From the NCBI RefSeq assembly GCF_013315695.1, contig NZ_CP054353.1: a stretch of DNA of 64,000 nucleotides. One strand, written 5' to 3'. Below the pieces are notes generated by a model, which saw nothing but the letters and a program-made list of their open reading frames with translations, had not been told where the DNA came from and did no database searches. Every line of letters starts with the position of its first letter. Position 1 is the stretch's first letter. The translations under genes and the position numbers were made by a program. The stretch comes from Escherichia coli (GTDB lineage: Bacteria > Pseudomonadota > Gammaproteobacteria > Enterobacterales > Enterobacteriaceae). Shown piece by piece: positions 1,560 to 51,965 of this stretch.

Positions 1560-3754
1560 AATTTTTCCCCTTTCAACAGGATGCTTTGCGCATCACGAGG
1601 CTTGATGACATAGCACCAAACTTGCTTACGACCATCATGTTCTTCGATATAGACACCCTGAAGCTCCGGTGCAAAACCTGGCAGCAGGTTGATCCCTTCT
1701 TCCAGAGCGCTGAAGTAACGCAGAACAGCACCACCCCAGATTTCACCCGGAACAACACACAGCACACCCGGAGGATAAGGAAGCGCACCTTCTGCAGCGA
1801 TACGGCCTTCTGCATCCGGCAGACGAATCAGCTCCACTTCACCGCGTAAATAGGCGTGGTTGGCTTCTTGTGGATTCATGCTGACGCGTGGGAAGTGTTC
1901 CTTACGAAACATCTCTTTTTGCAGTTGTTTCACGTTGTGACGGGCATACAAATCATGCATTTCCTGACACAACTGACGCAGGGTATAACCGGTGTAGCGC
2001 TCTTCATGCTGTTTGTAGATGGAAGGCAGTACTTCTGATAATGGCGCGTCGGACTCAAGCAGTTTTTCGAAGCGTACCAGCAGAGCAGCAAGTTGCTGAA
2101 GTTTGGCCATATCTTCTGCCGGAGTCAGCAGAAAGAGGATGGAGTTAAGATCGCATTTTTCCGGCACTACGCCATTTTCGCGCAGGAAGTTAGCAAGAAT
2201 CGTCGCGGGTACACCGAACGCTTCATATTCACCGTTACGTGCATCAATACCTGGGGTTGTCAGCAACAGTTTGCACGGATCGACAAAGTATTGATTCTCT
2301 GCATAGCCTTCAAAAGAATGCCAGTGCTCACCTGGTACAAACTGGAAGAAGCGCAGATCAACCGCAATTTGCGCTGTTTCATACGACTGCCAGGGTTTAC
2401 CATCCACCAGTTCAGGTACGAATGGACGAATATGCTGACAGTTATCGAGGATCAGTTTGCGGGCATTAATGCCATTTACCACACAATCCATCCACATATT
2501 ACGACCGCTGACACCTTCATGCATTTTGGCGTTGATATCCAGTGCGGCAAACAGCGGATAGAACGGGCTGGTGGAGGCATGCATCATAAAGGCGTTGTTC
2601 ATGCGTTTGTGCGGTACATAACGCTGTTGCCCTTTGATATGGCAGTCTTTTTTATGGATTTGTGAAGTCTGGGAAAAACCAGCCTGCTGTTTATGCACAG
2701 ATTGCGTAACCAGAATACCCGGATCGTTCTCATTAAGATCCAGCAACAGTGGTGAACAGTCCGCCATCATCGGGATAAACTGCTCATAGCCGACCCATGC
2801 GGAGTCAAAGAGGATGTAGTCACACAGATGACCAATTTTATCCACCACCTGACGGGCGTTATAAATCGTACCGTCGTAAGTGCCTAGCTGAATAACGGCG
2901 AGGCGGAAAGGACGCGCCTCTTTTGCCCGCTGCGGTGCGACTTCTGTAATCAGTTCGCGCAGGTAATTTTCTTCGAAGCAGTGGGCATCAATACCACCGA
3001 TAAAGCCATACGGGTTGCGTGCGGTTTCCAGATAAACCGGTGTTGCACCAGCCTGTAGCAACGCTCCGTGGTGGTTAGACTTATGGTTATTACGGTCAAA
3101 CAGCACCAGATCACCCGGTGTCAGCAGGGCGTTTAAAACCACTTTGTTGGAAGATGAAGTGCCATTTAGAACGAAGTATGTTTTATCGGCATTAAACACT
3201 TTTGCCGCATGTTGCTGTGCAATGCATGGCGCGCCTTCGTGAATCAGCAGATCGCCCATTGCCACATCCGCGTTGCACAAGTCAGCACGGAACAGCGCCT
3301 CACCAAAGTATTCTACAAACTGATTCCCCGCCGGATGGCGACGGAAAAATTCGCCGCCCTGATGACCGGGGCAATCAAACGCGCTGTTACCCTGATTGAC
3401 ATAATCGACCAGTGCGCGGAAGAAGGGCGGGCGCAGTTGAGTTTCATAATGGCTGGCTGCGGTTTCTAACTGACGACCATAAAATTCTCGTCGCGATTCG
3501 CAATTCTCAAAGACACCCGAAATACGGGGCAAATACTCTGCGGGTACACGTTCTTGATTTTCAGTAGCAATAAATACCGGGATGCCATAACCCGTGGCAT
3601 CGATTTCATCGAGTTTTCCGCGTGTAACATCGTTGAGCGATAAAACTATTGCCGCCACATCGATATTACTGTTTTCATTAATATAGATACATTCTCGCTG
3701 CGTGGTAAAACAGTCCGGGCAAGAATCACTAACCGCAATTTTTAATTTTGACAT
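1556..3754 (-). CDS. speF: Inducible ornithine decarboxylase (PLP-dependent)
   Basis: ORF track gives 1556..3832; start moved to the internal ATG at 3754 (MSKLKIAVSDSCPDCF...), matching the SpeF N-terminus as recalled; fold-III decarboxylase family. Confidence 0.93.
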   Translation of the reverse strand: MSKLKIAVSDSCPDCFTTQRECIYINENSNIDVAAIVLSLNDVTRGKLDEIDATGYGIPVFIATENQERVPAEYLPRISGVFENCESRREFYGRQLETAASHYETQLRPPFFRALVDYVNQGNSAFDCPGHQGGEFFRRHPAGNQFVEYFGEALFRADLCNADVAMGDLLIHEGAPCIAQQHAAKVFNADKTYFVLNGTSSSNKVVLNALLTPGDLVLFDRNNHKSNHHGALLQAGATPVYLETARNPYGFIGGIDAHCFEENYLRELITEVAPQRAKEARPFRLAVIQLGTYDGTIYNARQVVDKIGHLCDYILFDSAWVGYEQFIPMMADCSPLLLDLNENDPGILVTQSVHKQQAGFSQTSQIHKKDCHIKGQQRYVPHKRMNNAFMMHASTSPFYPLFAALDINAKMHEGVSGRNMWMDCVVNGINARKLILDNCQHIRPFVPELVDGKPWQSYETAQIAVDLRFFQFVPGEHWHSFEGYAENQYFVDPCKLLLTTPGIDARNGEYEAFGVPATILANFLRENGVVPEKCDLNSILFLLTPAEDMAKLQQLAALLVRFEKLLESDAPLSEVLPSIYKQHEERYTGYTLRQLCQEMHDLYARHNVKQLQKEMFRKEHFPRVSMNPQEANHAYLRGEVELIRLPDAEGRIAAEGALPYPPGVLCVVPGEIWGGAVLRYFSALEEGINLLPGFAPELQGVYIEEHDGRKQVWCYVIKPRDAQSILLKGEKL

Positions 3755-5027: not shown

Positions 5028-7708
5028 ATATCCTCATGAAATTCTTCAAGTTCAGGGGCAGTTTGCTGGGGAAGTGTAACACGAAAACAGGCACCACCTT
5101 CCGGTCGGTTGAATGCGGTAATGGTGCCGCCGTGTACATCCACAATCGCCCGACAAATTGCCAGCCCAAGCCCGACGCCCGGCACTGCCGACTCTTTATT
5201 CCCGCGGGCAAACTTATCGAATATCGTCTGCTCCTGGCCTGGCGGAAGACCGGGGCCGTTATCCCAGACATCCAGTTGTAGATTTTCGCCCTCAACGTGG
5301 GCATCGATACCAATTTCGGCCTGCGCACCCGCGTATTTCACCGCGTTCTCCAGCAGATTAATCAGCACCCGTTCAAAGAGTGGCCCATCAACGTGGATTA
5401 AGGTCAGCGGTTCTGGCAAAGACAGGTTGATGGGCGATGATAATCCCGGTTCCAGCATTTGCAGCGCGCTGCCGACCACTTCTTCCAGCGTTAACCACTC
5501 TTTCTTCAAATTAAAGCCGCCGGACTGAATTCGCGCCATATCCAGTAGATTATTCACCAGTCGGGTCGTGTTCAGCACATGCTGGCGAATCTCGCTGGCC
5601 TGGCGGGCGTGGGGCGATCCTTCGCTTGCCAGATCGAGCGTTAAGATTTCTGCCTGACCGAACAGCACCGTAAGCGGCGTGCGTAAATCATGCGAAAGTG
5701 CCGCCAGCAGGGCGTTGCGGATCTGTTCACGTTCGCTTGCCATCCGCGCCTGTTCTTCGCTGGCGGTCAGTGTCAGCCGCTCAAGCGCATTGGCGACTAA
5801 CAGCGTAAATGTCTCCAACAGGCGCTGTTGTTCCGGGATCATCAACTGACGCAGATTCCCCGGTTCTACCACCACCAGTCCGTAGGTTTTCTCGCCGCTT
5901 CTTAACGGCAGAATCTGGTACGGTACGCCGGGTAACGTGTCGGTGCCCGCGCCCGCAGGCTGACCTTTATCAAAACTCCACTGCGCGATGGCATCGTCCC
6001 ACGGCGTCATTCCTTGCGGATGTGTTAACGGCTGCAATTTACCGTTGTTATCGGGCAACAACACCTGACTGCGGGCATGAAACGTGGAGGCAATAAATTG
6101 TTCGCTGGTGGCGGCGATGTCCTGCGGACTGCGGCCCACAGCCAGAGCTTTGGACATTTCATATAAGTGCCGTGTGCGTTGTTCGCGGTAACGGGCTACC
6201 CGCGCCTGATAACGCACGCCAGCAGTAAGGTTCCCGATCACCAGCCCGACGGTTAACATCACCGCGAAGGTCAGCAGATATTGCACATCAGAGACGGCGA
6301 GCGTGCCGCGTGGGGTGATAAAAAAGAGATCGAAACTCACCACATTAATGACGGTGGCAACCACTGAAGGCCAGCGTCCATAAAATAGCGCCACCACCAC
6401 CACGCCAAGCAGATACAGCATCACCAGGTTGGCGGCATCAAACGCCATCAGCCACTGCATGGCAATTAAGGTGATAACGGCGCATAACGCGGCGGCAACC
6501 ACGCATCCCTGAATCTGTACCCGCCACTTGTCTTTAAAAGAGCGGCTATCCGGCGCGTTGTTAAGTGTGCGGGCGGGGGGGTCATCAAGTGCGACCAGCA
6601 CCTGATCGAGTTCGGGGGCGATACGCGCCAGTCGGTCAGCAAACGTTTCCCGACGCCACCAGCGGCGCGAGGCCGGGCGACCGAGAATAATCTTGCCGAG
6701 ATTATGTTCACGGGCATAACGCACTACTGCTTTTTCTTCCGCTGGATCAGAAAGTGTTGCCGTCTCCGCGCCCAGCTCCTGCGCCAGACGTAAGGCGCTG
6801 AGAATTGCCCGACGTTTTTTCTCCGGTAAGCGATGCAGGGCAGGGGTTTCAACATACACCGCGTGCCAGACACTGCCCAGGCGCGAGGCCAACCGCGCCG
6901 CCGCGCGGACCAGTTTCTCACTGCCGGTGTTATGCCCGATGCATAAAAGGATCGCGTCGCGTGTGTGCCAGACTTTCTCTTCGCCAGGATGCCCCCGCCA
7001 GGCGCGCATTTGCTCATCTACGCGATCGGCAGTACGGCGCAGTGCCAGTTCGCGCAGGGCGATCAGATTGCCTTTGCGAAAAAAATGTTCAATGGCGCGC
7101 TCCGCCTGCCCGGCAATATAGACTTTGCCTTCTTTCAGCCGCTGGCGCAGATCGTCCGGGGGCAAGTCCACCAGTACTACGTCGTCGGCGGCATCAAAAA
7201 AAGGATCGGGCACGGTCTCCCGTACCTGAATTCCGGTGACGCCGCTGACCACATCATTCAGACTTTCCAGATGCTGAACGTTAACGGTAGTGAAAACATC
7301 AATGCCAGCTTCCAGCAGCTCCTCAATGTCCTGCCAGCGTTTGGGATGACGAGAACCTGGCGCATTACTGTGCGCCAGTTCGTCCATTAAGATCAGTGCC
7401 GGACGGCGGGCGAGGGCGGCATCGAGATCAAACTCGCTGATATGCCGCCCACGGTACGCCTGGCGTTTGGGCGGCAGAACAGCCAGCCCTTCCAGCATTG
7501 CGGCGGTATCTTTCCGCCCGTGGGTTTCTACCACGCCAACCACAATATCCAGCCCTTGCGCCCGCAGTCGCTGGGCTTCCGCCAGCATCGCCCAGGTCTT
7601 CCCGACGCCTGCGCAGGCACCGAAGAAAACTTTCAGCTTCCCCCGATGCGGCGCGGCAGTTTGTTCCAGCAGACGATCGGGGTCGGGACGTAAGGGTTCG
7701 TTATTCAT
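5024..7708 (-). CDS. kdpD: Sensor histidine kinase KdpD
   Basis: Track ORF 5024..7741; start moved to [17 protein letters not shown] (ATG at 7708), giving 894 aa; Walker-like N-terminal KdpD domain, USP domain, TM segments and HisKA/HATPase C-terminus. Confidence 0.95.
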
Positions 7709-33857: not shown

Positions 33858-35051
33858 ATGAAGAAAATTGTTCTGCCGGTTGCTCTGGCCCTGATGGGTA
33901 TAAATGCGGACGTTTATGCGGCCGATGTAAAGATCGATATTTTAAGTGCAACAGTGAAAGATAAACGCATTGAGGGGGCATCGGTGACGCTGCAACGCAA
34001 TGGCGCACAATCTGTTTCTGGCACCACAAATGCCTCGGGCAGCATTAATCTGGGCTCTTCCTTTGCCGATGATCAAGATGCTTTGTTAATCGTCAAAAAA
34101 GAGGGCTATTCTAATCTGGTGGTCAAATGCCCGTGTGCGGGCATGACTTATGCGATTAGTCCGGTAATGACTAGTCTGGATGGCATGCGTGTCGTATTGA
34201 GCTGGGGCGAAAAGCCTTTTGATCTTGATTCGCATTTGATCTTCCCTGGCGGACATATTTATTTTGATAGTAAAGAGGGGACTGATGCCAATCTGGATGT
34301 TGATGATACGGATAGCTATGGACCAGAAACTGTCACTATCAGCAAAAAGCATTTTGGCGAAAGTTACATCTATGCCGTGCAGGACTATAGCAATAAAGGG
34401 TTGCCCAACAGTAATTATCTCTCTGCCAGTAAGGCAAAAGTGTTTGTTTATGTAGGGGGCTCCCTGGTGCGTAGTTATAGTGTCCCTGCTGGAAAACGAG
34501 GGAACATCTGGACCGTGTTTAAACTCAATCCAAACGGCGAGTTTGAAGATATCAACTCTGTTACCACCGCCAATTTTAACGACACCACATTAGGCGTCAG
34601 GGATTTAGCCACTGTGATAATGCCTGCGACGGGTTCTTCAACTCCGGCTTCACCTGCGATGCAAAACAGTGGATATACTCAACTGGCAAGAAAATATAAT
34701 CGTGAAGGCGAAGCTGTTTACAAAACCGGTCAACTTGAGCAAGCCATTCAACTCTTCCAACAGGCAACAGAATTAGACGGCAATTACGGTCAGGCATTTA
34801 GTAACCTGGGTCTGGCTTATCAGAAAAATGGCAACATCGCGGAAGCGATTTGGGCAAATCGTAAAGCGATCTCGTTAGCCAGTGGAGCAAATGCGGCGAC
34901 AACGCGCGCTAACTCCTATTATAACATTGCCAAAATTTATGAAACTGCAGGACAGAACGCTGATGCATTGCAGCATTATCAACTCGCTTATGCGGAAAAA
35001 AATAAGCCCTCTTATGAAGAGGCCATCGCACGGGTAAAAGCGAAAATGTAG
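33858..35051 (+). CDS. Secreted protein with YfaP-like (DUF2135-type) central domain and C-terminal TPR repeats
   Basis: 397 aa; Sec signal peptide MKKIVLPVALALMGINADVYAA; motif LSWGEKPFDLDSHL...DANLDVDDTDSYGPETVTI as in YfaP-family proteins; C-terminal TPR-like repeats (AIQLFQQATELDGNYGQAFSNLGLAYQKNGNIAEAI...). First gene of the island. Confidence 0.7.
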   Translation: MKKIVLPVALALMGINADVYAADVKIDILSATVKDKRIEGASVTLQRNGAQSVSGTTNASGSINLGSSFADDQDALLIVKKEGYSNLVVKCPCAGMTYAISPVMTSLDGMRVVLSWGEKPFDLDSHLIFPGGHIYFDSKEGTDANLDVDDTDSYGPETVTISKKHFGESYIYAVQDYSNKGLPNSNYLSASKAKVFVYVGGSLVRSYSVPAGKRGNIWTVFKLNPNGEFEDINSVTTANFNDTTLGVRDLATVIMPATGSSTPASPAMQNSGYTQLARKYNREGEAVYKTGQLEQAIQLFQQATELDGNYGQAFSNLGLAYQKNGNIAEAIWANRKAISLASGANAATTRANSYYNIAKIYETAGQNADALQHYQLAYAEKNKPSYEEAIARVKAKM

Positions 35052-36025: not shown

Positions 36026-36614
36026 AACGCTGTCCTGAAATATAGACGTTAAACAACCCCCTGTATTGCGAGGGTAATTTTGTCTTTCCGGTCAGCAGCC
36101 AGCAAAAGGGAAAGAAAACGCGCGTAGTGTATGTGGCGATAGCAAGTTTTACAAGTGGTAAATCTGGCTTATTGTTAAAGAGGAATTATCTTTTGTGAAG
36201 TCTTTTAAGGCCATGACTCATTCAATTTAACCGGACATAGATAATATATAACATAGGGTATATAAATTTATCATTGTATACTTGTCATAATTCAAGTTGC
36301 ATGTGCTGCATCGATGTTCGCTCACCCAGGTCACTTACTTATGTAAGTTTCTGGAAATTCATTATTTGTTCCCTTCCTGCAACTTGACTTATTTAGAGTA
36401 TATTCATGTATATGAATAATATTCTTGCAATAATAGCTTTAAAGTATTGCATGCGGATAACTGAGGTGAAATTCCTGTTTTAGGATTATTGTCACTTTAT
36501 TTTCCTGGTTAGACATATAGCTGACTGGTTTGTTTATTTGAATTATGATATTCATTAGTGCTACTGTTTTTTATAAAATAATTTTTGAATTGTTATTTTT
36601 TCACGGACGGCATT

Positions 36615-41684: not shown

Positions 41685-43051
41685 GCCTGAACTCCTTCTG
41701 GCGTCACCTGTTCAATATGGAAATCAAAACGCAGAGCGTCGTTGGCTTCAATCAGGTGATATATGGAAAATTCGTATACCGGCCCGCCCTGGATATCAGA
41801 AGGGGAGAACGGGAACGCCAGATTGCCTGCGGTAGCGATGCGGTTTTCATAGCCGTAGTGCAGCATGGTAGAGCGCACCAGCGAGCAAACGCTATTGGCA
41901 ATTTCCTGGGTCGGTGCAACTACATCAAGGACAATCCCCAGCTCATGCCCGGCAGTTTGCATCGGTTCATGGTCGCCCATCACCCCGTTTTTGCCGTACA
42001 GGTGGAAATTGATGCGAATGCTGTCATCGTCGAGCGACAGGTTACGCCAAACGCTGGTTTTGACTTCATCGATGATTTTATCGATCCCGGCGATCATGAT
42101 CGGGTCGCGCGTTCCTGCGATGGTCAGACAGCGGAAGCCCACCCGTCGCGCACCTTCCAGTTTCAGGGCATACGGCGTTTCTTCATGCTTAGAACCGCTG
42201 ACGTACACTTCGCCGTCATTGACCGCTTTAAATGTGCAGCCTTTCAGGTTCAACACGCCGCCAGGTCCAGGCAGGAAGTAGGGATCGGATTTCTCATACA
42301 GTGTGTGTGCAGCCGCTGACGTTTCGGTAAATTTACGCTTCGGATTAAATGTCTTCAGCGTAAAGCCGTTGTCATCAATGATGCCCATCGCACAGTCAGA
42401 GCCTGAGCCGGGCGTTGCGGCGATTGCCGCGCATTCAAGGATTTTCCCACAATGCAGCGCCAGACCTTCATCAAAGCCTTGCATGATCGGGAGCGCAGCA
42501 AAGCAGGCCGGGTCGTAAGCGCGCCCGCCCAGCACCACTTGCGCGCCTTCTTTCAGCGCCCGCTGGAAGGGTTCGATGCCCATTTGCGCGACGATATACG
42601 TACTTTCGTCAATCGCGTCGTGGGTTAACGGCGGGACAAAATCCAGCGCCGTGATTTTGCCGTTATCCAGCGCCTGGTGGACGATGGCTTTGTCAACGTC
42701 TGCCGGGATCAACGCCATCGAGAACGAGAGGTGCTCTTCCTGGGCAATCTCATGAATTATTTCTCGGCACCACTCCAGGTGTGGTGCGGCACCAGAACCG
42801 CCAGCTGTTCCGATCACCACCGGTATATTATTTTGCACGCCTGCGGTGATCATATAGCGCAGATCGCGCTTGACCCCTGCGCGATCGGTAAACGGTTTGC
42901 CTGCCCCGAGGTAGTGGGGGCCTGGATCGGAAGAGCCTGCATCAACGGCGATCAGATCGGGCGATTCTGCCATCGCTTTGCGGAAGCTCTCTTCCGGGAA
43001 TCCATACCCGAGGATTGCCGTTGGCGATAAGACTTTAAAAGAACGAGCCAT
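41681..43051 (-). CDS. AtuA-like protein (DUF1446 family), function unknown
   Basis: 456 aa; N-terminal G-Y-G-F...D-A-G-S region resembling the DUF1446 signature; starts 3 nt after the methylaspartase stop. Confidence 0.65.
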   Translation of the reverse strand: MARSFKVLSPTAILGYGFPEESFRKAMAESPDLIAVDAGSSDPGPHYLGAGKPFTDRAGVKRDLRYMITAGVQNNIPVVIGTAGGSGAAPHLEWCREIIHEIAQEEHLSFSMALIPADVDKAIVHQALDNGKITALDFVPPLTHDAIDESTYIVAQMGIEPFQRALKEGAQVVLGGRAYDPACFAALPIMQGFDEGLALHCGKILECAAIAATPGSGSDCAMGIIDDNGFTLKTFNPKRKFTETSAAAHTLYEKSDPYFLPGPGGVLNLKGCTFKAVNDGEVYVSGSKHEETPYALKLEGARRVGFRCLTIAGTRDPIMIAGIDKIIDEVKTSVWRNLSLDDDSIRINFHLYGKNGVMGDHEPMQTAGHELGIVLDVVAPTQEIANSVCSLVRSTMLHYGYENRIATAGNLAFPFSPSDIQGGPVYEFSIYHLIEANDALRFDFHIEQVTPEGVQA

Positions 43052-43054
43052 TTG

Positions 43055-44296
43055 TTAATCCTTAGCCTGCAACAGCGCGATAGTACGATTCATTTCGTTG
43101 AAGACGATATCGAGGCCTTCGTCAAAGCCCATCCCTGGCTTTACCAGCATACGCATAGGGCGAGCGGCAAGGGCGACGTGGACACAGGTGCGGGCACTGA
43201 CATCAGTTTCATTGCAGGTGCCGCCCTGGTACGCTTCCATGCTGTGGCTGTTGCAGTAAAGAACCGCATCGACGATGTTGTGAATACTGCCCAGATCCGG
43301 GGTTTTGATTTGCACCATGTGACAACTGGCGGCATCAGTGAAATCAACAATATCCTGGTAGGTGTTACACCATTCATCGGCCACAATTTTCACGCCGGAA
43401 CCGAGGCGCGTCAGCTCTTTGGTAATCGCGGTCAGCAGGCGAATTTGATCGGGCTTGTTACCGGCATCGACCGGCCCTTCAATGTAGAGCGGCAGGCCTT
43501 GCGCTTCTTTTTCCAGGCTGGCGATGTATTGCGCACAGCGAAGCGGATCCATATCGAAGATCAGGCCGATAGTGCCGTATACATCGATGTGCAGGGTTGG
43601 GTGGTAGCGTGCGCTGGTGCGCTTGCTCAGAATACGATCCGACAGCCAGCGGACATATTCGCGCAGTTTTTCACCTTTAAAGCCCAGTTTCTCTTCGACG
43701 TTATTAATCAGTGCATGGGGCAGCACGTCGATGCCCTTAAGGATCATCTTATCGACGGCGATATATCGATCGTCCCCGCTCTGACCAAATAATGGAATGG
43801 ATTCCGCCACGCGTGGCAACTGCCATTCATCACAGACCACTTCAGTTTTCAGACGGCCGGTTGCCAGCGCGGTAGCATCAAGCAGCGCCTGTGATAATCC
43901 GTAGCGCACGGCGGTATGCAGCAAGTTGCCGTCAATACGCAATTTGTCGAAGAAACGGGCATTCGGCAGGAAAGCATCCACATCGCGGCCTATCAGTAAT
44001 GGCTTGATATGGTCGTTGAGGAACGGAATAAAGTGCTCAGCGAGGAACAGTGGATCGCGACCACCTGCCCCGGAATACTGTACGGCAGCACAGTCACCTA
44101 CGGCGACCGCGCCGTTTTCCAGAATCAACTGTACCGATACGCACTCCCCGGCCTGACGAACGGCGTTAAACCCCTGTGTTACCGGCTCCCCGGTATAAAA
44201 AAAGCCGTCATGACCCGCTCCGTTTTTTATCGCCTGCTGGTCATCGAAATAGAATGAGGAGTAGCCAGCAGTGAACAGAGCCTGTTTTATTTTCAT
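43055..44296 (-). CDS. 3-methylaspartate ammonia-lyase (beta-methylaspartase)
   Basis: 413 aa; very close to clostridial MAL as recalled: ...YFDDQ.AIK.GAGHDGF.YTG...AVQYSGAGGRDPLFLA...QSGDDRY..VDKMI.K..DVLPHALINNVEEKLG.KGEKL...HMVQIKTPDLG...GGTCNET. Confidence 0.92.
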   Translation of the reverse strand: MKIKQALFTAGYSSFYFDDQQAIKNGAGHDGFFYTGEPVTQGFNAVRQAGECVSVQLILENGAVAVGDCAAVQYSGAGGRDPLFLAEHFIPFLNDHIKPLLIGRDVDAFLPNARFFDKLRIDGNLLHTAVRYGLSQALLDATALATGRLKTEVVCDEWQLPRVAESIPLFGQSGDDRYIAVDKMILKGIDVLPHALINNVEEKLGFKGEKLREYVRWLSDRILSKRTSARYHPTLHIDVYGTIGLIFDMDPLRCAQYIASLEKEAQGLPLYIEGPVDAGNKPDQIRLLTAITKELTRLGSGVKIVADEWCNTYQDIVDFTDAASCHMVQIKTPDLGSIHNIVDAVLYCNSHSMEAYQGGTCNETDVSARTCVHVALAARPMRMLVKPGMGFDEGLDIVFNEMNRTIALLQAKD

Positions 44297-45741
44297 TATG
44301 GTCTTCCTATTAATTTACTGTGGGATACAGCATTGATGTCATCTACAACCATCTGGAATGTCGGTTGGCGTCCTTCAAAGCGTGCGCGTTCCGCAACGTA
44401 ATCGTGGTGGAGGTCGAGAATATCTTTTGGCAATGGAACGGCTCCGGCTTCCAGTACGCGTATCGCGCCGGTGTTGTCACGGACCGGAAGAATTTTGCCC
44501 GCGTTGCAGGCGGCTGGCGCAAACGGCACATCCAGTACGCCCGCTTCAAATGCCAGCACCGTACCGCGCGCAATATCACCATTACCCAGTTCGAACACTT
44601 TATTCAGTACCGCGTGAACCTCGCTCTTAATCAGTTCAATTTCCAGTTCAACCGCAGGGCACGGCGGGAATTTCTGCTCGTTGACCATGTTGAGCATCTG
44701 GCGGGAGGCTTTCAGCCCCTGAATGTTGGCAGCGGCAGTCGGGATGCCCCAGGCTTCGTGCGGACTTTTGGTGATGACTTTGGTGGCACCAGACATCCCC
44801 GCGACGGCTGCGCCCCAGGAGATAATAGCGAACGCTTTCGATTCGTCTTCCGGAAAGCCGCCCATCCACTGGTGAAACACGGTACTTAATTCATAGTCGG
44901 TATAGCCATAGCTCTGAAAATATTCGTGTGCAAGTTCACGCAGAGACTGGATCGCCGCAACATCCTGCGTCAGGCTGCCGACCTGTCCATAACCAACGGT
45001 GATAGATTTCACACCCTGTTCCAGCGCCAGTAATCCTTCGATTATCGCGATAGAGTGCGAGATAAACGGCGGGATCAGGGTACCCGTTAGTGGGCCAAAC
45101 GGTTCGCGGTTGATGCGGATCCCGTGTTCTTCATACATCCCCATTAAACGGTCGCAGTACTGCCAGTCGCGGATCGATTTTTCCAGCGTTACGCGCTTGG
45201 CATACGGAATGTTGTAGGAAATGCCGCCGCCTTCATAACTGGTAAAGCCGCTGGCCATCGAGATTTCAGCCAGCAGACGCGCATCTGGCGTGCCGTGGCG
45301 GATCTGTAGCGGTTTTTGCAAAGTTTCGGTGAGGCGACGGCAAGCTGCGACGCCGTGGTTAACGACCGGTAAACCGTTCAGTTTAGAGGTTCCGGCTTCG
45401 ATGGATTTTTTAATCCCTACAGCCGCTTCTTCGTACCGATTCAGACGGGTATATGCGTCGATGGTGCTCGGCAGCAGATCGCATTCTTCTTGTAGTGTTT
45501 TCAGTAGTTCGATGTGTTCGTCCATCAGCGCCACGCCTGCGCGCGGTTGGCTAAGAGTTTTACCTTCCTTGTCTGCTTTCAGCAGGGCAAGAGAGAAGCG
45601 TTTATGCTCAGGAATGGTTTGTTGGTATTTAACGCCATCTTCAAAGTTTTCAACATCCTTGCCGGTTTCCCAGGTTTTCAGTACCTGTTGCCGCTCGGTC
45701 ATGAATTCGTCATGGGTTAATTTCTTATTTCGAAGTTCCAT
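44296..45741 (-). CDS. Glutamate mutase epsilon (E, catalytic) subunit
   Basis: 481 aa; collinear with clostridial GlmE/MutE (MELRNKK...QPRAGVAL.DEHIELL...LPSTIDAYTR.NRYE...GTPD.RLLAEI...EGGGISYN.PYAK...FQMV.DDI.AV). Confidence 0.92.
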   Translation of the reverse strand: MELRNKKLTHDEFMTERQQVLKTWETGKDVENFEDGVKYQQTIPEHKRFSLALLKADKEGKTLSQPRAGVALMDEHIELLKTLQEECDLLPSTIDAYTRLNRYEEAAVGIKKSIEAGTSKLNGLPVVNHGVAACRRLTETLQKPLQIRHGTPDARLLAEISMASGFTSYEGGGISYNIPYAKRVTLEKSIRDWQYCDRLMGMYEEHGIRINREPFGPLTGTLIPPFISHSIAIIEGLLALEQGVKSITVGYGQVGSLTQDVAAIQSLRELAHEYFQSYGYTDYELSTVFHQWMGGFPEDESKAFAIISWGAAVAGMSGATKVITKSPHEAWGIPTAAANIQGLKASRQMLNMVNEQKFPPCPAVELEIELIKSEVHAVLNKVFELGNGDIARGTVLAFEAGVLDVPFAPAACNAGKILPVRDNTGAIRVLEAGAVPLPKDILDLHHDYVAERARFEGRQPTFQMVVDDINAVSHSKLIGRP

Positions 45742-45759
45742 TGATTGCAGCCTTAATTG

Positions 45760-47148
45760 TTATAGGGTTAAGCATTGAATACTGGTGCGCGCGGCGGCCA
45801 GCGGATCGACTCTGGCGACGTTTGCCAGCAGTGGTAATAGCCCCCGGGAATCGCGGTAATATTCAAATTCGGTCGGTAAGAGAATGCGTTTACCGTCGTC
45901 GTTTAACTCGCGGTATTTCAACCAGTGATGCATATCGAACTGACTGGCACGCGAGAGCCATCCGCCGGATCCGACGACTTTACGCACGGTTGTCAGGTCA
46001 CGTCCCATCTGTAAATCGACATTGCCGACGCAGGTGCAGACCTCTTTTTTGGTGCCCGCATGTCTTTCGGTGGCATAACCCACACACAGTCCGGCCAGGA
46101 CTGTATCGAAATATTTTTCTTCTGCATTCGCGGGTAAGTAGTCGGGATGAGCGACTAGATGACGGAGGTAATGATAAAAAGCGTCCAGCTGTGCGGGTTG
46201 CTGAGCAAAATTCACATTGACTAACTCTTTCGCACTTTCACCAACCACCATTGCCGAGACGCGCATTCCCAGATCGCCTTCCACCGTCCGTTTCACGAAG
46301 GGTTCCGGTACGCCGTGTAAAACGGTGTCGGGCGAGAGCGTGTTGGCACAGGCGGAATAGACATCGGTGGTTGCGCCACCCATGTCGATCAGTATGAACT
46401 CTTTCCAGCTGTGATCGACATTACTGATTGCCTTAACCAGTTCAAAGACTGTCCACGGTGTCGGCATTGGTTCTTCGCCTGTTTTATCAACAACGACATC
46501 CAGCCCTTTCCCTTTAACGATGCGTTTAAGGAATATGTCGCAGATAGCCTGGCGTGCAGCTAAAGGGTTCGGATGGTCAAGATCGGGCAGAACGTTGTCG
46601 ACGATGGTCAGGTCTTTATGCCCTAGGATCTCCTGCACCTCGTCCTGAATATCCCGGTTTCCGGCATAAATAATGGCGCAGTCGAGTTTGGATTCTGCCA
46701 GCACACGGGCGTTATTCAGGCCGTAGCTTTCTTCTCCGCCGTCGGTGCCGCCGGTGAACAAGAGAATATCGGGCTGCGTTTCTTCCAGTGCCTGGATATC
46801 ACGGCGGTTCAGCTTGTAGGAGTAATATTGCGCAATTTTAGCCCCCGCAGAGTGAGCGGTTACTTTCGCGGTTTCCAGGGTGATAGAAGGCACCAATCCC
46901 ATTGCGGCAACCGCCAGCCCACCTTTGGCAGAGGAGGAATACTTCAATGCAACCTCACCGTTGTTAAACAGGGGGAGGGTATTATCTACGTTTAACACCA
47001 GGTTCAGGCTGGAGAAAAACCCCTTCGCCAGATGATGGGTGGTGGTTGGGGTCAGTACGTGGTTAACCAACGTTAACGCGTCCCCCTCCCGGGCGAAGAG
47101 GGCTGCTTTGGTCCACGTCGATCCAATATCGACAGAGACGATTTGCAT
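45760..47148 (-). CDS. Glutamate mutase-associated protein L (GlmL/MutL-type putative chaperone or reactivase)
   Basis: 462 aa; N-terminal [18 protein letters not shown] (ASKHA/actin-like ATPase start); sits between the S and E subunit genes as in clostridial mutS-mutL-mutE. Confidence 0.8.
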   Translation of the reverse strand: MQIVSVDIGSTWTKAALFAREGDALTLVNHVLTPTTTHHLAKGFFSSLNLVLNVDNTLPLFNNGEVALKYSSSAKGGLAVAAMGLVPSITLETAKVTAHSAGAKIAQYYSYKLNRRDIQALEETQPDILLFTGGTDGGEESYGLNNARVLAESKLDCAIIYAGNRDIQDEVQEILGHKDLTIVDNVLPDLDHPNPLAARQAICDIFLKRIVKGKGLDVVVDKTGEEPMPTPWTVFELVKAISNVDHSWKEFILIDMGGATTDVYSACANTLSPDTVLHGVPEPFVKRTVEGDLGMRVSAMVVGESAKELVNVNFAQQPAQLDAFYHYLRHLVAHPDYLPANAEEKYFDTVLAGLCVGYATERHAGTKKEVCTCVGNVDLQMGRDLTTVRKVVGSGGWLSRASQFDMHHWLKYRELNDDGKRILLPTEFEYYRDSRGLLPLLANVARVDPLAAARTSIQCLTL

Positions 47149-47597
47149 CAGATTGCCTCTTCAAGAATACGAGTATCAACGTCATGACGTTGGTTGATAT
47201 CGTGTGCCATCAGCTGACAAACATCTTCTAAGTCATGACTTGGGGCAAAGACGCGATCAAATCCCATCTCTTTGAATTTGGTTTCCACGTCAGCGAAGTC
47301 ATGTTTTCCGACCACCAGGTTACCGCCCACATAGAGCAGGATGTCCCCCAGTCCACGCTCGATGCAGCGTTCGCGCATGCCCAGACAGTCGATATCGCCA
47401 TGCCCATAGATAGAGGAGACGACAATCGCGTCAGCGCCAGTTTCAATGGCCGCATCAATATATTCGTCCTGGCTGACCATTACGCCCAGATTAATGACTC
47501 TGAAGCCATGGTTGCTAAAAACGCGGTCCAGAACTTTATTGCCTACTGCATGGCAGTCCGCGCCAATAACGCCAATCACAAGTGTTGCTTTCTTCAT
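47148..47597 (-). CDS. Glutamate mutase sigma (S, B12-binding) subunit
   Basis: Start at ATG 47597 ([27 protein letters not shown]...), 149 aa; B12-binding DxHxxG motif; AAGGA RBS. Track ORF with the longer N-terminus is rejected. Confidence 0.9.
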
Positions 47598-48143
47598 GGG
47601 TAATCCTTTGTAAGACAGAGAGTAAAATAAGTTACACACGTCGTATTTATGGCCGTTCATAACGGCACAGGTTTAATATCACAGGAGTGTCTTTATCTGA
47701 CCGTAATGTTGCAATTGATCTATTTTCAAAATGTCTTTCGGGAAATGATTGTTTAAAGTATGTTGTTAAATTCTCATGTTAATTCAGTGTGTTATGTCAA
47801 CTAATGTCATGAATGTTAAATTTTTAAAATTAACTTGATTTGGTGTATTGAGGTATTTGTGATCTACTTCTAATTTGCATTTTAGTGATATGGGTTTAGC
47901 CATGAGTAAATGCATTTCATAAAATTTAAGTCGAATTTCACTGCAATTCATCTCTGCTTAATGTAAAAATAATGTTGAAAATAACAAATGGTTAATGATT
48001 CATGCGAATTATGACCTTAGTTAGCTCTTTTGATTTTTCGTAAAAAAGAGAGGTACATGAAGGTGCTACCAGTATGAGTAACGTTAATCAAAGGTTTTAT
48101 TACGTCTGGCAATAACGCAGGCCATTTTCGCGACTGGGTGGAT

Positions 48144-48566
48144 TTAATCAGTATAATCCTCATACAATAGTTCACGATTAACTGAACCGTTAACGGGGAT
48201 TTGGTGTTGAAATTTAGAAATGGCGGAGTCAATTAATGAAGACAATATCGAAAAAATGACAGTGTCAGAATTAATTTCAATTAATCCTTCTCGTTGTTGA
48301 CCAAAAAAGATATTTATCTTGATTTCATTTGTACTACGGCAATCAATATGTAGTAATTTTTGATCGCTGAGATTTTCTGTTTCATAAATGTTTTTGGCGA
48401 TAGTCGGATGTATTGATGCCAGACATCTGCTCAGATAAGCCAGATCCTTTAGGGAACACCCCGCTGAGTAGAGGATGTCAGAGAATTTTTGTGTGTTAAC
48501 TGTTGTCTCTGAAGCGTATGTTGCATTGACAGGAAGGGTGTTGAAAGAGATTTGAGATGGGAGCAT
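48144..48566 (-). CDS. Hypothetical protein (low-GC, no recognisable domain)
   Basis: 140 aa ORF 80 bp downstream of the 314-aa ORF on the same strand; no signal peptide or TM helix apparent. Confidence 0.4.
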   Translation of the reverse strand: MLPSQISFNTLPVNATYASETTVNTQKFSDILYSAGCSLKDLAYLSRCLASIHPTIAKNIYETENLSDQKLLHIDCRSTNEIKINIFFGQQREGLIEINSDTVIFSILSSLIDSAISKFQHQIPVNGSVNRELLYEDYTD

Positions 48567-48646
48567 TATTTAAATCTTTCCGTGAGTAATAAAAATTAAT
48601 CCCCGGGCATTGTTTAGCAATATTTGCCACAGGTAATATATAAAAA

Positions 48647-49591
48647 TTAAAGTATTTGATTGGCATCGGTTAACTGATCAATAACCAGTGCCAGATTGGT
48701 AAACATTTTGAAAAAGCGATACTGGCTCGGAATATCTCTTTCAAAGACGAAACATTCAATGTCATTGTTTGAAAAATAAAGGACTAGTGTTGCTGATTCG
48801 TCAGGAAAAATATGGAAATATATCTGGTTACCAGAAGGAGGATAGTCCAGAAGAAGGGTATCTTTGCCCGTCACATACCTGTTGTGGTCGTGGATGCTGC
48901 GCTCACACTTCATCAGAGGTGTCATGATACTCATGTATTCATCTGATGTTAATATATTAAAATCACCATCCATTTTAAAGAAACGATAAAGTAACAGTAC
49001 ATCCTCTTGCGTAACCGGTTCGTTTGTTTTTAGAGGGAAATAAGTGGGAACCAGAAGATGAGGTTCTAATCTATTTTGTTGAGCGCTATAACTAAATTTG
49101 AACATAAATTCCGGATCGCTCATCAATTGAGCGACATAATTATGCCTGGCTTCAAAAATTTTAACTTTTATCAGGTTAAATAAGTCTGTTTCGTCATCCT
49201 GTATTAAAAGACATTGGCCATAGCAGCCAGGCTTTTTTTCATTATAAGCAGAAACGGTTATTCTGTCAGGAGTGTCAACGTTATATCCAAAAGCCAGATA
49301 GTGACCGTCCTCATCGAGATTTGTTTCCAGGTTATTTAAATTTATCACATGAAGTGTTTGCAATGCTGATTCAATGAGCTGTTGACTCTCTGAGGTAAAT
49401 GTTTCGCGCTGCGTTGTATAAAGTGTATCGATTCCAACGACTATCCGATATGGGTCAAGGATGGCGGCAATCATCTTTATTACCTGCACAGCCACGGGTG
49501 ATGTCATTGATTCGTTATCTGTTTTTAGAGGATCATTAGATGGCCAACCTGAGAAGCGATTGACAGCCGAACCGATATTATCAGGACTCAT
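48647..49591 (-). CDS. Hypothetical protein (low-GC, no recognisable domain)
   Basis: 314 aa ORF in a strongly AT-rich stretch (roughly 38-40 percent GC by eye); acidic, apparently soluble; no family recognised. Confidence 0.5.
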   Translation of the reverse strand: MSPDNIGSAVNRFSGWPSNDPLKTDNESMTSPVAVQVIKMIAAILDPYRIVVGIDTLYTTQRETFTSESQQLIESALQTLHVINLNNLETNLDEDGHYLAFGYNVDTPDRITVSAYNEKKPGCYGQCLLIQDDETDLFNLIKVKIFEARHNYVAQLMSDPEFMFKFSYSAQQNRLEPHLLVPTYFPLKTNEPVTQEDVLLLYRFFKMDGDFNILTSDEYMSIMTPLMKCERSIHDHNRYVTGKDTLLLDYPPSGNQIYFHIFPDESATLVLYFSNNDIECFVFERDIPSQYRFFKMFTNLALVIDQLTDANQIL

Positions 49592-50045
49592 AGCAGCAAC
49601 CTCATTGTAATCAAGCGAGGCGCTGAGCGTACTCGGCTATAGAAAAACTAACTTGCAAAAATCGCTCATTTTTCATTTATCAGGCGAAAGTGGTCTCTGT
49701 TCACTCAGAAACAATCACTCCCGCTAAGTCATACCTGTTTCATCGATACACTTAAGTGATTATTACTAATGAAACAATAACATAACGGGCTTACGGCCGG
49801 TGCTCATAAAGGCAACAATCAATTAACTTTGATAAAAATATGTTATGTAAAATAGCAACAAATTGGCTAATCTAATCAATTGGTATTATAAAAAGTGGAT
49901 AAGGCGGTTCTGTTAAATAAAACACTGGTTTTTTATCTATACCTTTTCATTGTAATAATTGTGTTGCATAAATATTTCACAATAAATTAACAATAAAATC
50001 ACCAATGATCTATGGTTTATACATAATTAACATATTTGGTTGGTT

Positions 50046-50059
50046 TTGATATAAATCAA
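50046..50059. promoter_or_regulatory. FNR-type box (TTGAT-N4-ATCAA) in the cydAB upstream region
   Basis: Perfect palindrome TTGATATAAATCAA about 340 bp upstream of cydA; a second half-matched site TTGATCACTGTCGAA lies near 50150. Confidence 0.5.
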
Positions 50060-50396
50060 TTTTTAATTCTTGAAAAAAATCTGCAAAACACGATAAATTG
50101 TCGTAGATCAAATTGGTGAGATCGTGACAATTTCGCTATAAATTGATCACTGTCGAAAAATGCAAATTTGCTCAATAAAAACCTGTTTATTGTAAGGATT
50201 TTGCGGCGTAATATAATTACGGGATCAATTTGGTTTATTCATTAACATATTTGTAACTTTTTTATCATTGTCTTTTCCTCTTTTGATGAAATGGCAACGA
50301 TAGAGGCGAGCAAATAATTTTGTATTGGGGCATGCGTGTGACCCTTTCTAACGGGGTTCACTCTCGGAGTCTTCATGCGATGAGCAAGGAGTCATG

Positions 50397-51965
50397 ATGT
50401 TAGATATAGTCGAACTGTCGCGCTTACAGTTTGCCTTGACCGCGATGTACCACTTCCTTTTTGTGCCACTGACGCTCGGTATGGCGTTCCTGCTGGCCAT
50501 TATGGAAACGGTCTACGTCCTTTCCGGCAAACAGATTTATAAAGATATGACCAAGTTCTGGGGCAAGTTGTTTGGTATCAACTTCGCTCTGGGTGTGGCT
50601 ACCGGTCTGACCATGGAGTTCCAGTTCGGGACTAACTGGTCTTACTATTCCCACTATGTAGGGGATATCTTCGGTGCGCCGCTGGCAATCGAAGGTCTAA
50701 TGGCCTTCTTCCTCGAATCCACCTTTGTAGGTCTGTTCTTCTTCGGTTGGGATCGTCTGGGTAAAGTTCAGCATATGTGTGTCACCTGGCTGGTGGCGCT
50801 CGGTTCAAACCTGTCCGCACTGTGGATTCTGGTTGCGAACGGCTGGATGCAAAACCCAATCGCGTCCGATTTCAACTTTGAAACTATGCGTATGGAGATG
50901 GTGAGCTTCTCCGAGCTGGTGCTTAACCCGGTTGCTCAGGTGAAATTCGTTCACACTGTAGCGTCTGGTTATGTGACTGGCGCGATGTTCATCCTCGGTA
51001 TCAGCGCATGGTATATGCTGAAAGGTCGTGACTTCGCCTTCGCTAAACGCTCCTTTGCTATCGCTGCCAGCTTCGGTATGGCTGCCGTTCTGTCTGTTAT
51101 TGTTCTGGGTGATGAATCTGGTTACGAAATGGGCGACGTGCAGAAAACCAAACTGGCTGCTATTGAAGCCGAGTGGGAAACGCAACCTGCGCCTGCTGCC
51201 TTTACTCTGTTCGGCATTCCTGATCAGGAAGAGGAGACGAACAAATTTGCGATCCAGATCCCTTACGCGCTGGGCATCATTGCAACGCGTTCCGTGGATA
51301 CTCCAGTTATCGGCCTGAAAGAACTGATGGTGCAGCATGAAGAACGCATTCGTAACGGGATGAAGGCGTACTCTCTGCTCGAGCAACTGCGTTCTGGTTC
51401 TACCGACCAGGCGGTTCGTGACCAGTTCAATAGCATGAAGAAAGACCTCGGTTACGGTCTGCTGCTGAAACGCTATACGCCAAACGTGGCTGATGCGACT
51501 GAAGCGCAGATTCAACAGGCAACCAAAGACTCCATTCCGCGTGTAGCGCCGCTGTACTTCGCGTTCCGTATTATGGTGGCGTGTGGCTTCCTGCTGCTGG
51601 CAATCATCGCGCTCTCTTTCTGGAGTGTCATCCGCAACCGCATTGGCGAGAAAAAATGGCTGCTGCGCGCCGCGCTGTACGGTATTCCGCTGCCGTGGAT
51701 TGCTGTAGAAGCGGGCTGGTTCGTGGCTGAATATGGCCGCCAACCGTGGGCTATCGGTGAAGTGCTGCCGACAGCTGTGGCGAACTCGTCACTGACCGCA
51801 GGCGATCTCATCTTCTCAATGGTGCTGATTTGCGGCCTGTATACCCTGTTCCTGGTGGCAGAATTGTTCTTAATGTTCAAGTTTGCACGCCTCGGCCCAA
51901 GCAGCCTGAAAACCGGTCGCTATCACTTTGAGCAGTCTTCCACGACTACTCAGCCGGCACGCTAA
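50397..51965 (+). CDS. cydA: Cytochrome bd-I ubiquinol oxidase subunit I
   Basis: Start at second ATG ([28 protein letters not shown]), 522 aa. Confidence 0.97.

Follow-up and report, generated by a model that had tools for sequence, protein, structure and literature searches.

We conclude, with a probability of about 85%, that positions 49756-50396 of the DNA analyzed here, a 64-kb stretch from Escherichia coli (the window), constitute a native, vertically inherited control region of cydAB-cydX-ybgE carrying putative orthologues of the FNR operators Fnr-1 and Fnr-2 of K-12. Both the FNR operator and the cydAB control region are textbook elements. The initial annotation, in calling attention to an FNR palindrome at this locus, had thus spotted a known element correctly and misinterpreted part of its setting, in particular by reading the neighboring AT-rich DNA as a horizontally acquired island that abuts the promoter.

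Organization of the Region

The spacer under study measures 805 bp and extends from the start of a minus-strand hypothetical gene (49591) to the ATG of cydA at 50397. The window is here 100% identical to E. coli MS 21-1, whose RefSeq annotation places cydA-cydB-cydX-ybgE-ybgC-tolQRA downstream; on the upstream side it lists a pair of hypothetical genes and beyond them glmS, glmL, methylaspartate mutase E, and methylaspartate ammonia-lyase. The protein accession of cydA in that annotation is the same as that of K-12, and the cydA DNA of the window is 99.0% identical to K-12. What was initially called an AT-rich cydAB control region is indeed that region, and its GC content is 28% (49756-50322).

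Spacers of other genera were obtained by tracing MngB homologs to the mngB-cydA interval in Salmonella enterica, Citrobacter sedlakii, C. koseri, Kluyvera, Enterobacter hormaechei, and Klebsiella aerogenes. Within E. coli itself the spacer occurs as two alleles, of which the window carries one (W) and K-12 the other (K). The features discussed below are collected in Table 1.

TABLE 1. Features upstream of cydA, in positions of the 64-kb window
Feature	Positions	Strand	Remarks
Orphan AT-rich cassette, lineage-specific	48004-49751	-	1.75 kb; hypothetical ORFs 48144-48566 and 48647-49591
Cassette-side part of the spacer	49592-49755	.	5' flank of a 314-aa hypothetical gene; GC 42%
Right structural junction	49752-49756	.	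Where the inherited cydA control region begins
Distal control region	49756-50020	+	27.5% GC; presumed ArcA-P and H-NS binding area, by analogy with K-12 (PMC3798270, PMC3946193)
ArcA-box-like sequence GTTAATTGATTGTTG	49813-49827	-	12/15 to GTTAATTAAATGTTA; about -286 from the predicted P1 start
ArcA half-site-like sequence TGTTAAATAAAACAC	49911-49925	+	Block conserved across genera
Second ArcA-box-like sequence GTTAATTTATTGTGA	49977-49991	-	12/15; conserved in all W alleles
Proximal promoter module	50021-50322	+	Two discrete alleles in E. coli; window has W
Second conserved ArcA half-site-like block	50023-50035		
FNR site Fnr-1, TTGATATAAATCAA	50046-50059	.	Putative orthologue of K-12 Fnr-1
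P1-type sigma-70 promoter	50070-50099	+	TTGAAA, 18-bp spacer, TAAATT; from promoter scan
Putative Fnr-2 orthologue, TTGTCGTAGATCAA	50098-50111	.	K-12 counterpart TTGTTCTCGATCAA
Near-invariant 104-bp block	50129-50232	+	Kept across genera
TATAAAT element	50137-50143	+	Inside the 104-bp block
Promoter-like TTGTAA-16-TATAAT	50190-50217	+	Inside the 104-bp block
Leader, 74 nt	50323-50396	+	Shine-Dalgarno AAGGAG at 50386-50391
cydA, cytochrome bd-I subunit I	50397-51965	+	ATG at 50397

The Fnr-1 Operator

The consensus FNR site first noticed in the window is present and is the only exact match to TTGAT-N4-ATCAA on either strand of the 64 kb, with agreement to the FNR consensus at 10/10 half-site positions. 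Its description as a perfect palindrome holds for the half-sites, since the two 5-bp halves form a perfect inverted repeat, but not for the full 14 bp; because the central ATAA is non-palindromic, the site is a perfect consensus match without being a perfect 14-bp palindrome. At the same position Salmonella, Citrobacter, Enterobacter, and Klebsiella have TTGATTTAAATCAA, which is palindromic throughout its 14 bp. The alignment reveals that Fnr-1 is kept in Salmonella, Citrobacter, Kluyvera, Enterobacter, and Klebsiella, and that its half-sites are invariant in 13/13 compared sequences from five genera, with variable flanks.

In the alignment with K-12 the site pairs column for column with TTGATATTTATCAA, and the distance from its center to the ATG of cydA is 344.5 bp in the window and 341.5 bp in K-12. 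The center of the K-12 sequence (770339.5) lies 53.5 bp upstream of position 770393, and Myers et al. (2013, PMC3688515) place the cydAB FNR site of K-12 at -53.5, give 770404 as its ChIP-seq summit, and list the operon as directly repressed by FNR. From this coincidence of spacing we infer that the window sequence is the orthologue of the K-12 Fnr-1 operator of cydAp1. Occupancy by FNR and FNR-dependent anaerobic repression would then be expected for the window allele by analogy with K-12.

The odds that AT-rich DNA yielded the motif by chance, or that it is the site of another CRP-family regulator, seem to us next to negligible. AT-richness does lift the background for AT-rich motifs, and dinucleotide shuffles of the whole window give a mean of 0.12 matches, with at least one in 12/100 of them; for the 805-bp spacer our own arithmetic from local base composition gives an expectation of ~0.004. 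Against chance stand the invariance of the half-sites in all 13 sequences and the status of the orthologous K-12 site as an FNR ChIP-seq target (PMC3688515), and against another regulator of the family the half-site itself, which is TTGAT and not the CRP-type TGTGA.

Fnr-2, Promoters, and Leader

Downstream of Fnr-1, at a center-to-center distance of 52 bp in both the window and the K-12 allele, lies a second site with two mismatches to the FNR consensus, which combines a perfect ATCAA half with a weak left half (TTGTC versus TTGAT). All genera retain its TTGT and GATCAA parts, and the spacer between these varies. The K-12 Fnr-2 is reportedly centered at -1.5 from P1 (Cotter 1997; Govantes 2000), and the alignments identify 50098-50111 as its likely orthologue, lying over the P1 start and -10. 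The half-matched site initially placed some 100 bp downstream of the palindrome does exist, as TTGATCACTGTCGA at 50143-50156 (two mismatches to the FNR consensus, 97 bp downstream of Fnr-1), but the second FNR site that is documented is a different one, Fnr-2, whose putative orthologue lies at +52 bp. As TTGATCACTGTCGA falls within the near-invariant cross-genus block, it is probably functional in some way.

The P1-like promoter sits between Fnr-1 and Fnr-2, and its -35 and -10 hexamer regions are conserved across genera. Its placement is compatible with an Fnr-1 center at -53.5, and counting 53.5 bp from that center would put the P1 transcription start at ~50106. The promoter-like elements of the 104-bp block are probably downstream cydA promoters; five such promoters, P1-P5, have been reported in K-12 (PMC3037301, PMC3946193).

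All 74 nt of the leader are shared, at 100% identity, by the two E. coli alleles and by four further Escherichia lineages, Salmonella, C. sedlakii, C. koseri, and Kluyvera. An Rfam search with the leader gave no family match, and its predicted fold is not better than those of shuffled sequences.

Left Boundary and Inheritance of the Control Region

Homology to the window begins at 49756 in B2-type E. coli, where the order is sucD, one TPR gene, spacer, and cydA, in the Escherichia-like genomes L013 and L019, where it is mngAB-TPR-cydA, and in Escherichia sp. E1V33; in E. whittamii it begins at 49752. In other genera this point comes after the terminator hairpin of mngB (GCCACGC..GCGTGGCTTTATTGTTAACGGAATAATAAC, compared with ..AAGTGATTATTACTAATGAAACAATAAC in the window). 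The left edge of the control region is therefore a relic of the mngB terminator, namely of its descending arm. Every W allele, and likewise every mngB-adjacent spacer from another genus, thus becomes alignable at 49752-49756, and the boundary does lie upstream of the FNR sites, as had been supposed, at a distance of ~290 bp.

Alignment with K-12, the check initially put forward for placing this junction, is misleading here. Megablast and blastn homology to K-12 resumes only at ~50021 (81% identity), 25 bp upstream of Fnr-1, because the K-12 spacer is a divergent allele. A junction at ~50021 was rejected, as homology from 49752-49756 onward is seen in B2-type E. coli as well as in other Escherichia and in further genera.

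To the right of the junction, the DNA from 49756 through cydA can be aligned in five other genera. In an alignment of seven lineages from these genera the conservation is footprint-like, with blocks separated by variable DNA: 50042-50077 comprises Fnr-1 and the P1 -35; 50091-50116 comprises the P1 -10 and the outer bases of Fnr-2 around a variable spacer; and further blocks follow at 50129-50232, 50235-50257, and 50311-50399, the last of which contains the leader. The control region is shared by B2 E. coli and by four further Escherichia lineages, at 93-99% identity in its proximal part and 80-95% in its distal part, the latter range also holding among W alleles. The cydA genes of E. whittamii, MOD1-EC7003, E1V33, L013, and L019 are 96.7-97.5% identical to that of the window, and the divergence of the W spacer, being in step with that of cydA, fits vertical descent. 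Acquired DNA would be expected to be patchy in distribution and incongruent with flanking core genes; 49756-50396 is not patchy, and the W spacer groups as Escherichia, the incongruent allele being that of K-12. These data indicate that the 641 bp from the junction to cydA are most probably a vertically inherited enterobacterial cydA control region and not an acquisition, so that the supposed abutment of acquired AT-rich DNA on the promoter is not borne out.

The part of the spacer to the left of the junction behaves differently. The interval 49592-49755 is restricted to genomes that have the same hypothetical gene (1138 E. coli, and Escherichia sp. MOD1-EC7003 at 83%), and it does not belong to the conserved cydA control region.

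The Orphan Cassette and the Methylaspartate Cluster

Beyond the junction lies a cassette of 29-39% GC that is common to the window and MOD1-EC7003. E. whittamii and E1V33 align with the window up to 48003 and 47894, respectively, and resume at 49752 and 49756, the interval being occupied in them by 320-440 bp of unrelated DNA. The cassette has the marks of acquired DNA, being absent from relatives that share both flanks, atypical in GC, and made up of orphan genes; its ORFs have no Pfam or PADLOC match, and neither a mobility gene nor a direct repeat was found at 48004-49751. To judge from these comparisons, it is the only locally acquired-looking DNA that adjoins the control region.

Further upstream, glmS, glmL, mutE, methylaspartate ammonia-lyase, and a FumD-type fumarase make up a glutamate fermentation cluster. 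The methylaspartate/mesaconate cluster of this kind is known from E. coli O157:H7 (Kronen and Berg 2015, PMC4682846); the same genes stand upstream in the window, though outside the coordinates of the FNR finding. The cluster aligns at 88-89% with E. whittamii over 43471-48003 and with E1V33 over 42697-47894. Being syntenic beside cydA in other Escherichia at species-level divergence, it would be ancestral at this locus and not a recent island, and the island initially postulated here is thus largely ancestral DNA. The cluster behaves as one lost from the K-12 and B2 lineages; the B2-type spacer keeps a 72-bp relic of the glmS region, which suggests that this spacer arose by deletion. In Salmonella and C. 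sedlakii both glmL-glmS and mngRAB are found upstream of cydA, and in some E. coli the cluster comes after mngRAB. The locus upstream of cydA appears from these arrangements to be a rearrangement hot spot.

We consider it quite unlikely that the AT-rich tract preceding the FNR sites is acquired island DNA, perhaps co-silenced with the promoter, for example under one H-NS filament. The lineage-specific cassette does come within ~300 bp of the distal control region, and H-NS binds the mngB-cydA spacer of K-12 (PMC3946193). However, other Escherichia conserve the DNA from 49756 onward, which can be aligned in further genera as well, and the synteny of the methylaspartate cluster in E. whittamii and E1V33 means that most of the supposed island is no recent acquisition. 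Base composition argues in the same direction. The AT-rich tract (<40% GC) contiguous with cydA measures 775 bp in the window and the same in K-12, and a stretch of 42-44% GC at 49450-49750 isolates it from the AT-rich cassette. A single unbroken AT-rich tract from cassette to promoter was rejected on account of this interruption. A common H-NS domain over the cassette and the control region is possible.

The Distal Control Region

Within the distal control region, short blocks at 49773-49781, 49912-49922, and 49930-49938 persist across genera. Two ArcA-like boxes are observed in 49756-50322 versus 0.22 expected from local shuffles (P = 0.019). The box at 49813-49827 aligns with the K-12 box GTTAACTAAATGTTA (L001 5786-5800, ~-293 from P1) in the opposite orientation. 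In the alignment, Salmonella and C. sedlakii have CGTTAATTAAAACAC and K. aerogenes has GTTAATTAAAAT in place of the half-site-like TGTTAAATAAAACAC; the block is degraded in K-12.

In K-12, three ArcA ChIP regions lie upstream of cydA, and ArcA acts at cydAB by anti-repression of H-NS (Park et al. 2013, PMC3798270); H-NS binds the mngB-cydA spacer, in which multiple promoters lie (PMC3946193). The inverted box of the window would be compatible with the orientation-independent anti-repression model (PMC3798270).

By analogy with K-12, we propose that [4Fe-4S]-FNR would bind both 50046-50059 and 50098-50111 under full anaerobiosis and repress cydAB, blocking P1 and probably neighboring promoters too. 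H-NS would silence the operon via the AT-rich DNA of 49756-50040, and ArcA-P would counter-silence H-NS at low oxygen, leading to maximal cydAB expression. The sequence, its orthology, the site spacing, the conservation, and the boundary are established by the present comparisons; for the window allele, the occupancy by FNR, ArcA, and H-NS, as well as the start of P1, are expectations carried over from K-12.

Two Alleles of the Spacer in E. coli

Searches with the proximal 305 bp of the window divide 5418 E. coli genomes into 2244 that are at least 95% identical to the query (W) and 3173 that are ~81.7% identical (K, the K-12 type), with 1 intermediate, so that the split among complete E. coli genomes is 59% K and 41% W. 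The distal spacer of K was found in 3170-3182 E. coli genomes. K is nearly uniform, its spacer being at least 99% identical in 3043/3182 genomes, and W falls within E. coli into identity bands of at least 99% and of 95-99%. Strain HH97 is the only recombinant with distal W and proximal K, and the alleles therefore behave as blocks that comprise the whole spacer; movement of the proximal module by itself was rejected for the same reason.

The difference between the alleles stops sharply at 50322/50323. To the right of this point K and W strains have leaders that are 100% identical and cydA genes that are 99.0% identical; to the left, multiple alignment gives 74-75% identity between K and W in the proximal part and ~40% in the distal part, which is essentially unalignable.

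E. whittamii, MOD1-EC7003, E1V33, L013, and L019 carry W as well, with 93-99% proximal identity. In the multiple alignment W is nearer to Salmonella (84%) and C. koseri (83%) than K is (78% and 76%), and K was not grouped with W in 277/300 neighbor-joining bootstrap replicates. The banded identities of W and the near-uniformity of K are as expected if W were the older resident. From these relationships we conclude that W is probably the resident Escherichia allele and K a later replacement. The recombination that would have brought in K could have been anchored on its right side in the invariant 74-nt leader. The anomaly of K-12 appears to be confined to the spacer, since its mngRAB genes are Escherichia-like, with 96% and 90% identity to other Escherichia copies and 76% to Salmonella.

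The reverse polarity, in which the K-12 spacer is native and W was imported along with the island, strikes us as very unlikely. The K-12 order sucD-mngRAB-cydA is indeed common in enterobacteria (Enterobacter, Klebsiella, C. koseri, Kluyvera), and the Escherichia-like mngRAB of K-12 also speaks for this polarity. Yet W is found, at species-level divergence, in every other Escherichia lineage sampled, and its proximity to Salmonella and C. koseri, the bootstrap position of K outside W, and the banding of W all point to W as the older allele.

A replacement of the spacer in K-12 would call for a donor, and none was found among the spacers of Salmonella, three Citrobacter, Kluyvera, Enterobacter, and Klebsiella, the nearest being 78% identical to K. 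Because of this negative search, the dimorphism may instead reflect rapid divergence of K in place, under relaxed or positive selection, with no foreign replacement. We hold this to be unlikely. It would agree with the synteny and the conserved blocks that K retains and with the K-12 mngB gene, which is alignable up to its stop codon at within-genus identity. It is difficult to reconcile, however, with the near-identity of the flanking leader and cydA, with the occurrence of one intermediate in 5418 genomes and one recombinant, and with a divergence of ~25% versus 1-4% in the neighboring genes, which would demand an extreme local rate.

To later replacement by K as the preferred account we attach a broader and tentative proposal, to which we give rather less than even odds. 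It holds that the K-12 cydAB control region is a xenologous or otherwise anomalous spacer replacement, that W is ancestral, and that the B2, D, E, and F phylogroups are possibly tuned differently from A and B1. The last element arises from the distal ArcA/H-NS part, which is unalignable between the alleles and might therefore give the two sets of phylogroups different responses of cytochrome bd-I expression to oxygen. It came as a mild surprise that the promoter version of laboratory K-12 is the divergent one.

Comparison with Known Systems and Significance

The FNR operator in the window adds little that is new, beyond confirming that an essential respiratory promoter was annotated correctly. 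Of wider use is the observation that K-12, because its spacer is a divergent allele, is a poor reference at this locus, both for junctions and for the transfer of binding-site coordinates; B2-type E. coli, other Escherichia species, and Salmonella are better comparators. In some 41% of sequenced E. coli, O157:H7, Nissle 1917, and ExPEC B2 strains among them, cytochrome bd-I is driven from a W control region. To our knowledge, all work on FNR, ArcA, and H-NS at cydAB has been done on the K-12 allele, and we know of no study of the distal half of the W control region. Cytochrome bd-I is important for low-oxygen growth in the gut, and allele-specific oxygen tuning, if true, could matter for colonization of the gut and of the inflamed gut.

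The closest described system is the cydAB region of K-12, for which Cotter and colleagues in 1997 and Govantes and colleagues in 2000 reportedly described cydAp1 with Fnr-1 at -53.5 and Fnr-2 at -1.5. The window resembles it in the operon, the FNR half-sites, the 52-bp spacing of the two sites, the AT-rich spacer, the P1 -10 GATAAAT, the 104-bp block, and the 74-nt leader. It differs in the center of the FNR site (ATAA in the window versus ATTT in K-12), in the P1 -35 (TTGAAA versus TTGGAA), in the reversed orientation of the distal ArcA-type box, and in having no mngB upstream. The window carries W, and the K-12 experiments were all carried out on the other allele, which over the proximal 300 bp is 74-75% identical.

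The dimorphism of the whole spacer fits a known class, the switched intergenic regions. Horizontal regulatory switching in E. coli was reportedly described by Oren and colleagues in PNAS in 2014. In a literature search of incomplete coverage, no paper was found to describe cydA in these terms. Switched intergenic regions of E. coli are also the subject of Piggy (Thorpe et al. 2018, PMC5890482), and the cydA spacer is like them in that a conserved gene stands behind two discrete, divergent alleles with sharp boundaries, one of them phylogenetically incongruent. The divergence is also of the kind that marks switched regions, ~25% in the spacer versus 1% in cydA and 0% in the leader, with genomes distributed 2244/3173/1 over W, K, and the intermediate. 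What sets the case at cydA apart is that the unusual allele is that of K-12 and not that of the window.

Gene orders and junctions upstream of cydA

At least five gene orders are found in the Escherichia sucD-cydA interval, which includes window 33858-35051 (Table), and in Salmonella and C. sedlakii the same interval carries glmL-glmS followed by mngRAB. The interval is a rearrangement hot spot. The spacer of the B2-type sucD-TPR-cydA locus (L003) retains a 72-bp remnant (L003 5695-5763 versus window 47293-47364) with 76% identity to the glmS region of the window, which suggests that the B2 arrangement arose by deletion from an ancestor that carried the cluster.

At window 49752-49756 the cydA control region has a single joining point for three unrelated left flanks, on a relic of the mngB terminator, and the position is a recurrent breakpoint. 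The K-12 locus (L001) has an extra segment of ~190 bp running from the mngB stop to a terminator-like hairpin (L001 ~5560-5750), which includes a REP-like GCCGGATACGGCATGAACGC sequence and has no counterpart in other genera.

Features of the sucD-cydA interval and its flanks
Feature	Position	Description
Gene order 1		mngRAB
Gene order 2		TPR only
Gene order 3		TPR + methylaspartate cluster
Gene order 4		mngRAB + rtcB + methylaspartate cluster
Gene order 5		mngAB + TPR
Left flank 1	joins at window 49752-49756	orphan cassette (window)
Left flank 2	joins at window 49752-49756	320-440 bp segment, E. whittamii and E1V33
Left flank 3	joins at window 49752-49756	TPR-side DNA, B2 E. coli and the Escherichia-like genomes L013 and L019
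AT-rich cassette	window 48004-49751	two orphan ORFs on the minus strand, at 48144-48566 and 48647-49591
~127-bp element	window 36277-36402	in the window's island
~127-bp element, two copies	L009 1266-1392 and 2007-2134	MOD1-EC7003 locus, oriented with cydA on plus strand
cydA leader (74 nt)	window 50323-50396	conserved stretch extends ~30 nt into cydA

The orphan cassette and a small repeat element

The cassette was found in 1138 E. coli genomes and is missing from E. whittamii and E1V33. Pfam and PADLOC searches of both its ORFs gave zero matches. In Escherichia sp. MOD1-EC7003 it is present in disrupted form, with two inverted copies of the ~127-bp element (73-82% identity) lying either side of part of it; this element looks like a miniature mobile element.

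A contig scan using a 20-mer common to essentially every E. coli genome returned matches only in contigs shorter than 80 kb. None of these came from E. coli, E. albertii or E. fergusonii, which is not evidence of absence from those species. One record, L007 (DXKH01000067.1, a 'Citrobacter sp.' MAG), has the same sequence as the window throughout the cydA spacer and the hypothetical gene; this contig probably belongs to E. coli and was mis-binned.

An invariant cydA leader

Across both E. coli spacer alleles, four other Escherichia lineages, Salmonella, C. sedlakii, C. koseri and Kluyvera, the leader shows 100% identity, with 16-30% divergence in the adjacent promoter DNA in the same comparison. 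An Rfam search of the 74 nt gave no family match, and the predicted stability of its fold was not above that of shuffled sequences (z = +0.69). This leader marks the right-hand edge of the difference between the window's allele and the divergent K-12-type allele, and for that reason it could be a recombination anchor.
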